Shown here: in pieces, positions 4,298 through 62,778 of the stretch
How the letters are laid out: every line of letters starts with the position of its first letter
Numbering within the stretch: the stretch's first letter is position 1
Notes under the pieces: generated by a model
The model's input: only the letters and a program-made list of their open reading frames with translations
Database searches by the model: none
What the model was told of the DNA's origin: nothing
Position numbers and translations under genes: made by a program
Origin: a virus
Reading direction: 5' to 3' (one strand)
Virus record (IMG/VR): IMGVR_UViG_3300012931_000018
Location: 23,946-87,945 of that record
DNA length: 64,000 nt

Positions 4298-5559
4298 AAC
4301 GTTTAATTTATTTACTGCCGTTTGTGTTATTGATAATATTTCAATTAATATTAATAGATAAAGGAATATTATCGATATCCGCTGATGAAAGCGGTCATAC
4401 CTTAAATGCTTATAATTATTATATAGGCAAAGGGAGTTTGTGGGGTATGTGGCTGCCAGGGCAACAGCTTATTTATACGGCGGGATTTATGGTATGGAAA
4501 GATTTAGTGTGGATGCCACGAATAGTGAGTATGATGTTTGGAATATTTACATTGATAAGTTTAATGCTGGTGACTAAAGAATTATTTAAGGATAAGAATA
4601 TAATTGTTATGACTGGAGTGTTTGGAAGTTTATTTGTTGGAATAAATTTATATAGCGTATTGCCCTTGACTGAAATATATTTCTTTGCTTTTATATTATT
4701 GGAAATATATTTAATGCTATATTATTTACGGACTGGTAAGAAAGAATGGCTGGTAATTATAGTTGGAATAATAGCAACAATGTTTCGTTATGATGGTTGG
4801 GTATTTATACTGGTTGTGGGCGGTATGATGATAAAGAAATTAAAATATAAAACTATACTGTTGTTTTTATTTCCGGTGGTATGGGTAATGTATGGATGGA
4901 TAATGACAGGGGATATGTTTGGGTTTATACATAGTGTTGCTGAAAGAAGAATAGCGTTGCGAAATGATGAAGGTATGATATATAACTATATTCTTCTAAC
5001 ATTGGAATCTACTTTATTGGCTGGATTATTTTTTATTAATAAAAATAAAAAATACTTAATGTTATATGTGATAACTTTTATTATTTGGGCAATAGCTTTA
5101 TCTCGAACCGGAGCAATGCCGACTCATAATGTATGGCGTGTACCGTTGATATGGAATATTATGATGATACCGTTTCTTGCTTATGTTGTGATGAAACCTA
5201 AACAAAAAATATTGAGCGTTGTAGTAATTATAATTATTTCACTTTTATTCATAAAGCAAACTGTTAAATATATTTCATTACCACAAAAATACATTTTAAC
5301 GTGGAATGAAATTGAACTGGGTAAGAAAATTCAACAGCTCGATGGGGGAATTATTATTCCTAAGATGGGTTGGGAATACTCGAATATTCTTGTGGTAAGT
5401 CAACGACCTGAAAGAATTTCTTTTAAAGATGGAATTAACTATATGGATTTAATATTGTACGATTATTTAATTGTACCGCGCCGGATTTATATTGATAAGG
5501 AAGAAATATGGAATAATAAAGATTGGTTTATTTATAAATTAAAAAACACAGGGGAATAA
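4294..5559 (+). CDS. Polytopic membrane glycosyltransferase, GT-C fold (ArnT/PMT-like)
   Basis: About 10 hydrophobic segments; acidic DE motif (SADESGH) after TM1; TE and RxD/E-type motifs (PLTEIYF, FRYDGW); short soluble C-terminal domain. Confidence 0.7.
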   Translation: MKRLIYLLPFVLLIIFQLILIDKGILSISADESGHTLNAYNYYIGKGSLWGMWLPGQQLIYTAGFMVWKDLVWMPRIVSMMFGIFTLISLMLVTKELFKDKNIIVMTGVFGSLFVGINLYSVLPLTEIYFFAFILLEIYLMLYYLRTGKKEWLVIIVGIIATMFRYDGWVFILVVGGMMIKKLKYKTILLFLFPVVWVMYGWIMTGDMFGFIHSVAERRIALRNDEGMIYNYILLTLESTLLAGLFFINKNKKYLMLYVITFIIWAIALSRTGAMPTHNVWRVPLIWNIMMIPFLAYVVMKPKQKILSVVVIIIISLLFIKQTVKYISLPQKYILTWNEIELGKKIQQLDGGIIIPKMGWEYSNILVVSQRPERISFKDGINYMDLILYDYLIVPRRIYIDKEEIWNNKDWFIYKLKNTGE

Positions 5560-52963: not shown

Positions 52964-53986
52964 ATGAGAAATCTAAATGATATTGTAATAAATGAAGATA
53001 TAGATAATGATGTATTGGAAATAAAAAATAAATTACCAGATGATTTTGATGTTAAAGATTATTTATTAAAAAAAGGAATCGAGTTCAAAGAGCATGAATC
53101 AAGTTCTACTGGAACTTGGTTACAAATGTGTTGTCCATTTCCAGAACATGACGATAAACGTCCAAGTTTTAGTATTAATGTAGAATCTAAATCTTGGAAT
53201 TGTTATGTGTGTGGAAGTGGAAATTGGTTTCAACTTGCTGAAAAAATGGGATGGGAAGATTGGAAAAGTGATCAAGTTTTAATTAATACTATTAGTAATG
53301 AAGATTGGAAAAAGACTAAAAGAAATTTTTCAAAAAGATTAGAAGGTGGTTGCTATGTAGCAATAAAACCTAAAATGAAAAATATAAAACAAGATGATAA
53401 ATATTTTGAATATTTGAAGAATAGAAAAATCGAAAGTAGTATAGATATTTTTGAAATAAAAAGAGGCTCTATATGTTATGATGAAGATTATAATTATAAT
53501 TATAGAAATCGTATTTTAATTCCGGTTCATAATTTAGATGAAACTAAAATATTGTGGTATGAAGGTCGGCACATTGAAGACAAATTCAGTCCGAAATATT
53601 ATAGACCTAATGGTGTTGAAAAAACTAAAGTTATTTTTAATTATCACCGAGTGAAACAATCTGGTTCAAAGAAAGTAATAGTTGTTGAAGGGATAATAGA
53701 TGCAATTACTTTATGGATGTGGGGATATCCGGCGGTATGTATATTTGGATCATCAATAAGTCCTGATCAAATGGAATTGTTAATGTGTTTTGATGAAATT
53801 TATATTTGTTTAGATATTGATAGAGCGGGGATAAAAGGTTTTTTGAAATTCAAAGAATTATGTACAGGATGTGGTGCTTTATTAAAAAGAATAATTATTC
53901 CAAGAGGTAAGGATGCTAACAAATTAAAGAAATTGCAATTTGATGAATTTTATAATCGTTCTAAAAGTATTGATAAAAATAAATAA
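52964..53986 (+). CDS. dnaG: DNA primase (CHC2 zinc finger plus TOPRIM)
   Basis: CPFPEHDDKRPSF...WNCYVC; VVEGIIDA; CLDIDRAG; GKDAN. Confidence 0.92.
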   Translation: MRNLNDIVINEDIDNDVLEIKNKLPDDFDVKDYLLKKGIEFKEHESSSTGTWLQMCCPFPEHDDKRPSFSINVESKSWNCYVCGSGNWFQLAEKMGWEDWKSDQVLINTISNEDWKKTKRNFSKRLEGGCYVAIKPKMKNIKQDDKYFEYLKNRKIESSIDIFEIKRGSICYDEDYNYNYRNRILIPVHNLDETKILWYEGRHIEDKFSPKYYRPNGVEKTKVIFNYHRVKQSGSKKVIVVEGIIDAITLWMWGYPAVCIFGSSISPDQMELLMCFDEIYICLDIDRAGIKGFLKFKELCTGCGALLKRIIIPRGKDANKLKKLQFDEFYNRSKSIDKNK

Positions 53987-54002
53987 ATTGAGCAGTATAA
54001 TA

Positions 54003-54050
54003 TAAATCAGATATAATATCTGATTTAATGAAATTTTTTTTATTTTTTAT
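54003..54050 (+). terminator. Terminator after primase
   Basis: TAAATCAGATA / TATCTGATTTA stem and long T tracts. Confidence 0.6.
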
Positions 54051-54079
54051 TAGGAATCTTAATAATTTTTTTATAAGTT
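54051..54079 (+). promoter_or_regulatory. Possible promoter for the ncRNA
   Basis: TAGGAA-17 bp-TAAGTT in AT-rich context just upstream of the structured RNA; weak match. Confidence 0.3.
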
Positions 54080-54103
54080 AGTAGTAGAAATTATTGACAG
54101 ACT

Positions 54104-54588
54104 GGCTGATTGAATCCTAACTTAAACCGGATTGTTGCTGTTAAAGAAAGAAATAACTGAGCATTAAACTTTCTTAACAGTGTATAAACAAGACTTTAAT
54201 ATTGAGCCAAAAAAATACAGAAAAAGTCTTTTAGAAAAGTTAGGTTCTCTGATGGAGACAAAAACACTACTTTCCAAATCAAAGTAAAACTCATTCTTTT
54301 AATAGTACAAACCTTTCGAAAAAATAACCAAAAAATATCTAACCAAATTCAAAATAACAAAATGCTAACGAAGCAGTTATCTTTGAACCACTTCTTAAAA
54401 TACTGAATGAGAAACTAAGTTAATGTGATACCAATGAGGTGATTGACTTAGAAAAATTTTAAGAGTAATATCGGGATGGAGATGCCTAACTGATACTTAA
54501 AAACTTTGATGGTAGAAATGAAAAAGTGAAAGATCAAGAAACTATGATCACTTCAGGTTCTGAAATAAGAACGGATTTTTGGACAGCG
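54104..54588 (+). ncRNA. Large ornate structured RNA, ROOL-like
   Basis: ORF-free; many helices (54137-150/54169-181, 54190-197/54223-230, 54290-296/54405-411, 54415-424/54442-451), 5'/3' closing pairing, long-range AGTTAGG/CCTAACT; GAAAAGTTAG and TGAAAGAT motifs resemble ROOL as I recall it. Confidence 0.6.
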
Positions 54589-54603
54589 ATTTTTTAATTA
54601 AAA

Positions 54604-54677
54604 GGTCGAAACAAGGAAAGATAAGATTGTGATCTTATCTTTCCTTGTCTTATAATTAAGTTATAACCGATGAGACC
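54604..54677 (+). ncRNA. Type II hammerhead ribozyme, U4C core variant
   Basis: GGTC-GAAAC-[stem III hairpin]-GTC / stem I TTATAAT-TAA-GTTATAA / CCGATGA-GACC; predicted cleavage after C54649. Confidence 0.8.
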
Positions 54678-54717
54678 AAAAAACAAATTAAACAATCAAT
54701 CAAATGAGGAAAACAAA

Positions 54718-55194
54718 ATGAGACAAGCATTAAATAAATATTATTTTGATAAGAATCTTGAATTTGGTTCTGCTATCTATGATAGAAATTTAATTAATGA
54801 ATTAAAAAATGAAATTATAATATTTGAAAAGAATAAAGAAACTGCAAGAACAAAAATGCTTAATTTCATCGATGCTATTGAAAAAGGTATGAAAGTTATT
54901 AATTGTTCCATAAAATTTTTAAATGAAGTTGATACGGGAATTGATGGACTTTATAAAAATTCAGCTGGTCAAATAAATTTTAGACAATGTAGAGATGATG
55001 TTGTGATAACAGGTAATTTGAAATATTTAGGTAAGCAATTAAAACCAATTGATAATTATCATAAGGCAATAGAAAGATTAAGTAGACTTGAAAAGAAATT
55101 TAACGAAACAGCTGTTGGTGCACGTTTATCTTTGAATCCGTTTTCTATAAAGGATGATATTGAAAATATTTCATTCACTATTTATATCAAATGA
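54718..55194 (+). CDS. Hypothetical protein
   Basis: SD GAGGA before ATG 54718; the track start 54670 lies within the ribozyme core. Confidence 0.7.
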   Translation: MRQALNKYYFDKNLEFGSAIYDRNLINELKNEIIIFEKNKETARTKMLNFIDAIEKGMKVINCSIKFLNEVDTGIDGLYKNSAGQINFRQCRDDVVITGNLKYLGKQLKPIDNYHKAIERLSRLEKKFNETAVGARLSLNPFSIKDDIENISFTIYIK

Positions 55195-61081: not shown

Positions 61082-62062
61082 ATGGAAGATACATTTGTAA
61101 TAATAGGTAAGGGGATAAGCGGGATAATGATGGCTGCTCAATTATCAATTAATTATCCTGAATCTAAAATTATAATTATTGATAAAGATAGTAAATTAAC
61201 TGAGCATGTTTTTCATTTGCATAGACCTATTGAAGATATTCCATCATTGAGTTCAAGAAATGGTCTTGTTATGAAAAAGTTTTCATCATCAACTTATGAT
61301 GGAAAGACAATTCATAATAATCCAACTATTGAAGATATAAATAGATATTCATTAAAAGTATTTGGTCACTTAAAAATAAATAATTCAGGTAACTCTAATG
61401 ATTTTACAATATTTCCTGTTGGAAAAGGAAAAATTGTACAAGCACTTAATGGAATGATAAATTCAGAATTTGTATTGGGTGAAGTTTCAAAGATAGATGT
61501 TAAGCAAAAAATAATAAGTATAAGTATGCCTGATAAGACAGTTAAGCAAATAAAATATAATTATCTTATAAATACAATATCTTTGCCAATATTTTTGAAA
61601 TTATGCAGAATAAAGCATTCAATAAATTTTGAAACATTTCCGTTTTACGGAGCAACTTTAAGAATTAATGAAACTGGATGTTATCAACAATTTATAAATT
61701 CATCTATTGATAATAGTAAATTAACAAGAGTTACGTTAATGAATGATGTTATATTTATTGAATCAATAGATAAATTTATTACTGATAATGATTTGGTTAT
61801 ATTAGAAAAAGTTTTTCAAAATAAATTTTCTAATTTAGATTTTTATAAAATAGTCCCTGGAAGAATAACTCCAATATCTAAAGAAATAAGAAAGCCATTG
61901 ATATATTGGTTGACTGAAAAATATGATATAATGCTGCTTGGTAGATATGGTTCATGGGCTTATAAAGTTGCTAATGATATTTGGGATGATGCTAAATTTT
62001 TAGTAGAATTAATAAACGTTAAACGACAATCAAAATTATTTGAAAAAGGATTTTTATTATGA
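61082..62062 (+). CDS. FAD-dependent oxidoreductase (UDP-galactopyranose mutase-like architecture)
   Basis: IIGKGISGIMMA FAD-binding start, YNYLINTISL, LLGRYGSW. Confidence 0.7.
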   Translation: MEDTFVIIGKGISGIMMAAQLSINYPESKIIIIDKDSKLTEHVFHLHRPIEDIPSLSSRNGLVMKKFSSSTYDGKTIHNNPTIEDINRYSLKVFGHLKINNSGNSNDFTIFPVGKGKIVQALNGMINSEFVLGEVSKIDVKQKIISISMPDKTVKQIKYNYLINTISLPIFLKLCRIKHSINFETFPFYGATLRINETGCYQQFINSSIDNSKLTRVTLMNDVIFIESIDKFITDNDLVILEKVFQNKFSNLDFYKIVPGRITPISKEIRKPLIYWLTEKYDIMLLGRYGSWAYKVANDIWDDAKFLVELINVKRQSKLFEKGFLL

Positions 62063-62778
62063 TATCTGAAAGAAAAAAACCTATTGTAAAATTGATAAGT
62101 ATAACAAAAGACCCTATAAAGGTTATTGCTTTTGCAAGAGATATTTCTGATCAAAAGGTAATACCACTTGTAACTAATGATATAAGTAATGAATATGCTT
62201 TATATACATTTAGAAAAGTATTATCTGAATATCACCAAACACCATTAGAATATATTAATACTGTTTGGTATTTAGATAATGTTAGTAGAGCATTTCAACA
62301 GCAACTAACAAGGCATAGAATAGGATTTAGTTTTAATATTCAAAGTATGCGATATATGGATGCCGGTAACTTTGCTAAAGAAATGAATTATCATATGCCC
62401 GGTACAGTTAAGGATGTTGAAAAATATCATCAAGGTATGCTTGTTGCTGAAAAAATTTATCGTGATGAAATTGAATCAGGTGAAACTGTTGAAGATGCAC
62501 GTGGTCATTTACCTATGAATGTTTTTTCGCCTATATCTATGGCTTGTAGTTACAGGGCATTAATTGGTTTGGTAAAACAAAGAATGTGCTGTGCTACTCA
62601 AGGTGAATGGAAAGATGTAGTCATTGGTATAAGATTTGAACTCGAAAAAATAAATCCAGTATTAATAGAACCGTTTGATTGTTTATGTGGAAGAGTTAAG
62701 AATGGCAAAGGATTTTGTAAAGTTCTTAAAATACCTGTTGATAAATATGGTAATAAAATAGGTAATAAAAATGAATAA
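62059..62778 (+). CDS. thyX: Flavin-dependent thymidylate synthase (ThyX family)
   Basis: HQTPLEY, VSRAFQQQLTRHRIGFSFNIQSMRY, EDARGHLP. Confidence 0.88.
   Translation: MISERKKPIVKLISITKDPIKVIAFARDISDQKVIPLVTNDISNEYALYTFRKVLSEYHQTPLEYINTVWYLDNVSRAFQQQLTRHRIGFSFNIQSMRYMDAGNFAKEMNYHMPGTVKDVEKYHQGMLVAEKIYRDEIESGETVEDARGHLPMNVFSPISMACSYRALIGLVKQRMCCATQGEWKDVVIGIRFELEKINPVLIEPFDCLCGRVKNGKGFCKVLKIPVDKYGNKIGNKNE

Follow-up and report, generated by a model that had tools for sequence, protein, structure and literature searches.

Perreault et al. (2011, PMC3088659) have described the type II hammerhead ribozymes (Rfam RF02276), whose strands follow one another as stem II 3′ strand, GAAA, stem III, UH site, stem I, CUGANGA and stem II 5′ strand. 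These ribozymes are common in bacteria and in phage contexts, rare variants of the core occur, and the majority of members form a pseudoknot of at least 4 bp in which loop I pairs with the nucleotides that directly follow stem II on its 3′ side (PMC3088659). A proposed role of intercistronic phage hammerheads is to divide long transcripts into gene-sized mRNAs, and the U4C core change lowers activity in vitro, yet is functional in vivo in a viroid (PMC3088659). A second system with which the locus described here has been compared is ROOL (Weinberg et al. 2017, PMC5737381; cryo-EM in PMC12286853), an RNA of 581 nt with six junctions and three pseudoknots that frequently neighbours tRNAs or prophages.

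We analysed the window, a stretch of 64,000 nt that makes up bases 23946-87945 of an IMG/VR virus record, and in particular the noncoding gap that follows its primase gene. Our reading, to which we assign a probability of about 0.6, is that this gap encodes a lineage-specific noncoding transcript on the + strand, with a variable 5′ part, a structured 3′ domain and a type II hammerhead that forms the 3′ end. The predicted ribozyme has the strand order of the type II hammerheads and, like them, lies in a phage intergenic region and has covarying stems. It differs from them in its U4C core and its 17-bp stem III (about 100 nt in a relative, L071, where the stem contains an insert), in having neither a clear loop I pseudoknot nor an Rfam score, and in being fused to a conserved upstream domain of 250 nt.

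A first-pass annotation of the DNA had assigned most of the gap to ROOL. The element does resemble ROOL in length (about 550 against 581 nt), in its many hairpins and in its association with a phage, which occurs for ROOL as well; unlike ROOL, it is conserved over only about half of its length in its nearest relative. Searches of the whole window with Rfam 15 at gathering thresholds returned no match, and searches of 53900-54750 (851 nt) with permissive filters and E ≤ 10 returned no ROOL, GOLLD or OLE. Run over the complete 88-kb genome at E ≤ 10, the ROOL model (RF03087; 574 positions, gathering score 99.1 bits) was also without a match, a result that is weak alone, control genomes being likewise blank. 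The fold shared by the window and L071 consists of nine helices arranged as hairpins plus an ACCA/UGGU pairing, and lends no support to junctions or pseudoknots of the ROOL type. The neighbourhood differs too: the record is a free phage with terminal repeats, and ARAGORN found no tRNA in the 64-kb window. As there is no covariance-model match, no tRNA neighbour and no support for the ROOL architecture, we rejected the ROOL identity; because the call is false, this locus does not widen the host range of ROOL.

Setting of the gap and its relatives

The source record (87,945 bp, 27% G+C, 123-bp direct terminal repeats) represents an uncultured tailed phage with all genes on the + strand, in an order that runs from terminase, portal and head genes to helicases and a DnaG-type primase. 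No cultured phage has a portal more than 27% identical to the one encoded here, and the FCB host suggested in the first-pass annotation stays conjectural. The stretch was located in two wetland-metagenome DNA runs, which may be its source, and no RNA run was among the runs listed; contigs aligned to the stretch were short, spurious pieces only. The gap (53987-54669, 683 nt) has the primase gene on one side and small genes of unknown function on the other. It is the longest in the genome to lack a + strand ORF of at least 50 aa; the runner-up, of 437 nt, is at the genome end. The features of the gap and its surroundings are collected in Table 1.

Table 1 Features in and around the post-primase gap, in window coordinates.
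Feature	Position	Strand	Remarks
DnaG-type primase	52964-53986	+	Replication genes (helicases) nearby
Hairpin	54003-54027	+	AT-rich, 12-nt perfect inverted repeat; just 3′ of primase stop; T runs after
AT-rich block	54035-54085	+	Contains TTTTTTATTAGGAA(T/A)CTTA; conserved in L071
Variable 5′ part	54100-54337	+	First three helices of the first-pass annotation and AGTTAGG site; z -0.18
Structured 3′ domain	54338-54590	+	nhmmer against L071 E 6e-12; covariation; MFE z -2.43 (54338-54600)
ACCA/UGGU	54342-45/54510-13	+	Invariant; predicted long-range pairing
Hairpin	54415-24/54442-51	+	Conserved loop G.GAUACCA...AGGUG
Helix	54457-66/54493-54502	+	Encloses invariant GGAUGGAGAUGCC (54474-86)
Helix	54522-27/54575-80	+	Encloses hairpins 54532-36/54545-49 and 54557-61/54568-72
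Type II hammerhead, predicted	54604-54677	+	Core with U4→C; stems I/II/III of 7/4/17 bp
Hammerhead stem II	54604-07/54674-77	+	GGUC/GACC; open
Hammerhead G12-A15.1	54608-11	+	GAAA
Hammerhead stem III	54611-27/54632-48	+	17 bp, closed
Hammerhead predicted cut	after C54649	+	GUC triplet
Hammerhead stem I	54650-56/54660-66	+	Closed; hairpin UUAUAA-UUAAG-UUAUAA
Hammerhead core	54667-73	+	CCGAUGA; C instead of U at position 4
RBS and start codon, likely	54706-09 and 54718	+	GAGG and ATG; 158-aa gene; read from sequence

Relatives of the primase are few. The closest are P0002 (60% identity) and P0003 (56%, on an 86-kb contig); the close comparison of gaps took in L071 and L176. The L071 primase is 55% identical to that of the window, and its gap region, which is identical to that of the 35.7-kb IMG/VR record L176, is homologous to the gap of the window (nhmmer E 6e-12). 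Four further loci (L002, L072, L073 and L075) have primases 39-46% identical to that of the window, followed by ORF-poor gaps of 600-1200 nt. The post-primase noncoding regions of two of these, L072:2520-2960 and L002:5235-5560, are homologous to each other (about 62% identical) and show weak structure, with 28 pairs of which five are compensatory. Neither the L072 nor the L002 gap gave a convincing alignment with the window, and a four-way alignment including the window was unreliable.

No homologue beyond L071/L176 was found by blastn against cultured phages, which returned no match, in scans of viral, metagenome and genome collections that started from primases, or in DNA pattern scans. Other phage loci, about 2.2 Mb in all, were searched with R1, a model of the 3′ domain, and nothing convincing emerged: its weak matches were a hairpin in L073 (14.2 bits) and a site in L142 (23.5 bits), and we judged the latter to be a chance match, as it overlaps the start of an ORF. 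The pattern of the GATACCA hairpin gave 19 viral matches, about the number expected by chance, and all except L176 were rejected because they lack the closing stem or lie inside coding sequence. The putative noncoding RNA is thus known from two phage genomes only.

Two elements precede the region of the RNA. The hairpin just after the primase stop codon, which has an equivalent at the same place in L071, may serve the replication operon as a terminator or as a processing element; its G-C pairs were too few for a terminator scan to pick it up. The AT-rich block that follows is better conserved in L071 than the 5′ part of the RNA, and we infer that it is a candidate promoter region for the noncoding transcript. 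Its TTTTTTATTAGGAA(T/A)CTTA motif is not enriched across the window (8 matches, 8.5 expected), and a sigma-70 promoter scan of the region performed no better on it than on shuffles.

The conserved 3′ domain and the variable 5′ part

From position 54338 on, the window and L071 align well, except for a window-specific insert of 51 nt that carries the TTCAAAATAAC/GTTATCTTTGAA hairpin. RNAalifold applied to the two sequences predicts 46 base pairs in nine helices. All 46 pairs (92 cells) are standard in both sequences and 11 of them are changed on both sides, whereas controls in which the partners were slid by 1-3 columns show 30-49% pairing and 0-2 double-changed pairs. The clearest case is the hairpin at 54532-36/54545-49, where GAUCA/UGAUC in the window is replaced by UGGUG/UACCA, amounting to four double changes. 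Two more fall in each of the helices 54415-24/54442-51 and 54457-66/54493-54502, and one in the hairpin at 54557-61/54568-72. The count is partly circular, because there are two sequences and the consensus fold was predicted from the same two; the covariation, seen with L071 only, is therefore suggestive of RNA structure in the 3′ domain rather than statistical proof of it at n = 2. Ten cells of the fold are in G-U pairs; read from the minus strand, each of these would turn into C-A, which assigns the fold to a + strand transcript.

The first-pass annotation had proposed a structured RNA of about 485 nt that, should the ROOL assignment fail, would be a new large RNA class. The complementary segments that it listed are all present where it placed them, and most are paired in the MFE fold. 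Comparison with L071 separates them: CTAAGTTAAT/ATTGACTTAG, TTTTAAG/CTTAAAA, GATCA/TGATC and GTTCT/AGAAC are kept in L071 by way of compensatory changes, whereas CTCATTC/GAATGAG and TTCAAAATAAC/GTTATCTTTGAA lie in or around the 51-nt stretch that L071 lacks. Fold statistics set the two halves of the region apart. The whole of 54090-54600 is only marginally better than shuffled sequences on the + strand (z -1.76, with 4/100 shuffles as good; z -2.40 on the minus strand). The 3′ half (54338-54600) stands out (z -2.43; 3/200 shuffles as good), and more so when the hammerhead and downstream hairpins are included (z -5.35; 0/100), whereas the 5′ half (54095-54337) is indistinguishable from chance (z -0.18; 81/200). 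What survives of the proposal is about 250 nt that are conserved and structured in two phage genomes.

This 5′ half contains GCTGTTAAAGAAAG/CTTTCTTAACAGT, AAGACTTT/AAAGTCTT, TACTTT/AAAGTA and the AGTTAGG site. It is mostly absent or rearranged in L071/L176, with which it shares only the short blocks TGATTGA, CTGATG.AGA..GACAAAAACA and AAGTAAAAC, and its window-specific hairpins, absent from L071, include the one that bears AGTTAGG. AGTTAGG (54238-54244) does have two possible partners, the CCTAACT copies at 54116-54122 and 54485-54491, as had been observed when a switch or pseudoknot was suggested. AGTTAGG and both copies of CCTAACT are, however, absent from or changed in L071, which leaves that suggestion without comparative support; part of the second copy is also taken up by two short helices of the predicted fold (54478-79/54485-86 and 54472-74/54490-92). 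A pairing of the 5′ TGATTGA with TCAATCA in the 5′ UTR after the hammerhead was no better than in shuffles across four loci. The 5′ 240 nt or so look like fast-evolving, lineage-specific filler with no detectable selected structure.

Several blocks of the 3′ domain are invariant between the two sequences: AACCAAAUUCAAA, the loop GAUACCA...AGGUG, UUAGAAAAAUUUU, GGAUGGAGAUGCC, UGGUAG, UUCUGAAAUAAGAA and UUAAAAG. The UACCA of the loop and the conserved UGGUA at 54510-54514 are complementary and may form a tertiary contact. Such a contact would compete with the ACCA/UGGU helix, and the two sequences show no variation in either pairing. The G.GAUACCA...AGGUG hairpin loop recurs: it is found at 54425-54441 in the window, at 5202-5234 and 5262-5296 in L071 and, slightly shorter, at 2316-2331 in L073. 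Within GGAUGGAGAUGCC a tiny ORF begins (54476-54493 in the window, MEMPN*), which has 12 codons in L071 and is preceded there by GAGGA 9 nt upstream. We rejected it as a peptide gene, since the lengths differ and the identity extends to third codon positions and is perfect only within the block.

A predicted hammerhead before the next gene

The boundary drawn by the first-pass annotation (54588) falls just short of the predicted hammerhead. All core positions of the window copy match the consensus except for U4→C, and the core of the L071 copy is the canonical CUGAUGA. The pairs that adjoin the core are intact (1.1-2.1 U-A, 10.1-11.1 G-C and 15.1-16.1 A-U). A hammerhead descriptor matched once in the 88-kb genome, both strands included (176 kb); L071 gave a single match too, at the homologous position. 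Shuffled genomes yield 0.25 matches each when the stem thresholds are loose; a strict form (stems I, II and III of at least 6, 4 and 8 bp), whose thresholds were set after seeing the matches and are reached by both real copies, gave 0 matches in 600 shuffled genomes. Between the window and L071, 19/19 stem pairs are kept, with eight double changes spread over all three stems of these two sequences (n = 2), against 0-2 in slid controls.

Stem III is the most unusual part. In the window it resembles a terminator, being a 17-bp hairpin with a T-rich tail; its equivalent in L071 lacks the T tail and is not terminator-like; what is conserved is thus the ribozyme junction rather than a terminator. 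Stem III of L071 also contains an unusually large insert of about 80 nt (L071:5456-5530), with CUGAUGGA and hairpins of its own. Matches of the stem III hairpin to Rfam miRNA and sRNA families were far below their thresholds, and we dismissed them as generic-hairpin noise.

Rfam hammerhead models (clan CL00010; the threshold of RF02276 is 37 bits) matched neither the window copy nor the L071 copy, even in searches of 111-146 nt at E ≤ 10. The loop I pseudoknot of type II members is likewise not apparent: the only partners for UUAAG of loop I are a UUAA about 10 nt downstream and a UUAA 5′ of stem II, the best pairing in L071 is of 3 bp, and no covariation was seen for a loop I pairing. The locus would provide a natural example of a type II hammerhead that escapes the present Rfam models and combines a U4C core with a very long stem III; such an example is useful for improving ribozyme searches of phage metagenomes.

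The more distant relatives vary at this site. L072 has the hammerhead core motifs and stem I, and its stem III is imperfect. At the aligned core positions L002 has CAAAAAG and UUGAAAA, which looks like a decayed ribozyme. At the syntenic position of L075, in the gap that separates the primase gene from the gene after it, lies a type I hammerhead (L075:1174-1260). Its core is canonical, the parts being AACUAA, CUGAUGA, a GAUC hairpin, GAAAC, an 8-bp stem III, GUA and UUAGUU, and it scores 24.5 bits (E 0.04) with the Rfam HH9 model, the threshold of which is 52.

Proposed fate of the transcript and of the downstream message

In our preferred reading, a + strand transcript would span the gap, starting in the AT-rich block at 54035-54085 or arriving as read-through from the replication genes. 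The hammerhead, in spite of its U4C core, would cleave itself after C54649. The upstream product would then be capped by the 17-bp stem III and end in a 2′,3′-cyclic phosphate, and the downstream mRNA would have a 5′-OH and start about 55 nt ahead of its RBS, with the hairpin of stem I. As judged from sequence, the hammerhead probably trims the noncoding RNA off the message of the next gene, and the released 3′ domain would act as an RNA in its own right and not as a leader only. Several points count against this reading: the two sequences on which it is based, the U4C core, the missing Rfam score, the terminator-like stem III, the loop I pseudoknot that is not evident, and the hammerheads that are imperfect in L072 and degenerate in L002. 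If the released 250-nt domain is stable and functional, it would offer a tractable case for why phages make ribozyme-trimmed RNAs.

We also considered, more tentatively, that the 3′ domain and hammerhead represent a new class of trans-acting phage RNA that is matured by a ribozyme and built of modules, with blocks that bind a partner. The G.GAUACCA...AGGUG hairpin, present once in the window, twice in L071 and once in L073, is a possible but doubtful candidate for such a module. With similar reserve, the invariant single-stranded UUAGAAAAAUUUU, GGAUGGAGAUGCC and UGGUAG might bind each other or a partner from the host or the phage; the UACCA loop and the UGGUA block could make one such contact.

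We wondered whether the gap could instead act in cis, as a long 5′ leader of the operon of small genes that follows. The 3′ domain would then work in cis only, where it might tune hammerhead cleavage, translation or read-through; the mRNA would gain a 5′-OH hairpin end and the upstream piece would be degraded. Such an arrangement fits the placement of the element directly before an RBS in a genome with all genes on the + strand, the continuity of the conserved domain with the hammerhead, the recurrence in L071 and L075 of a gap in which a hammerhead precedes the next gene, and the role in producing gene-length mRNAs that is proposed for intercistronic phage hammerheads (PMC3088659). We nonetheless consider it unlikely and favour a released noncoding RNA, because the 250-nt domain is large for a leader, has invariant single-stranded blocks, and precedes genes that seem not to be conserved; nor does the element match any known riboswitch or leader family in Rfam. 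As for those genes, the 158-aa protein has no match in the L176 and L002 records, an argument of little weight given that the L176 record stops about 100 nt beyond the hammerhead. At the N terminus of the downstream protein, the first 11 residues differ between L071 and the window, a weak hint that the RNA does not go with any one specific gene.

The proposal that the gap holds DNA-level signals only, either a replication origin or a cluster of promoters and terminators in which the 54611-54648 hairpin is an intrinsic terminator, appears improbable to us. The sequence is indeed AT-rich and adjoins helicase and primase genes, the 17-bp hairpin with its T-rich tail was called terminator-like, and the fold of the 5′ half is at the level of chance. 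Against this, the helices stay paired by means of G-U pairs, which the opposite strand would turn into C-A, and the L071 equivalent of the terminator hairpin has the insert of about 80 nt and no T tail while the hammerhead junction is kept. An origin of replication in the gap was rejected, as there are no iterons, nor direct repeats beyond T runs, and the cumulative GC skew is monotonic with no turn at the gap.

A divergent ROOL, GOLLD or OLE beyond the reach of the Rfam models is barely credible: the length of about 550 nt, the phage genome, the hairpins with A-rich linkers and the short ROOL motifs invoked in the first-pass annotation are outweighed by the blank searches (at E ≤ 10 on the 851 nt, at gathering level on the window and genome-wide with RF03087), the lack of a tRNA nearby, the unsupported multistem-junction and pseudoknot architecture, and a half-length that is not conserved even in L071.

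The mechanical ORF of the gene that follows the hammerhead starts at ATG 54670, which falls within the CCGAUGA of the hammerhead core, and the in-frame ATG 54718 lies 8 nt after GAGG. L071, L072 and L075 have, as does the window, an (A/G)AGG Shine-Dalgarno-like box a few bases 5′ of an ATG. Judging by these signals ATG 54718 is likely the true start of the 158-aa gene, and because the ATG of the longest ORF sits inside the core, automatic annotation probably over-extends the gene by 16 codons. Farther downstream, small genes that match neither Pfam nor PHROG fill about 7 kb and lead up to a gene at 62059-62778, near the right end of the genome, that encodes ThyX, a flavin-dependent thymidylate synthase (Pfam Thy1, E 4e-29).
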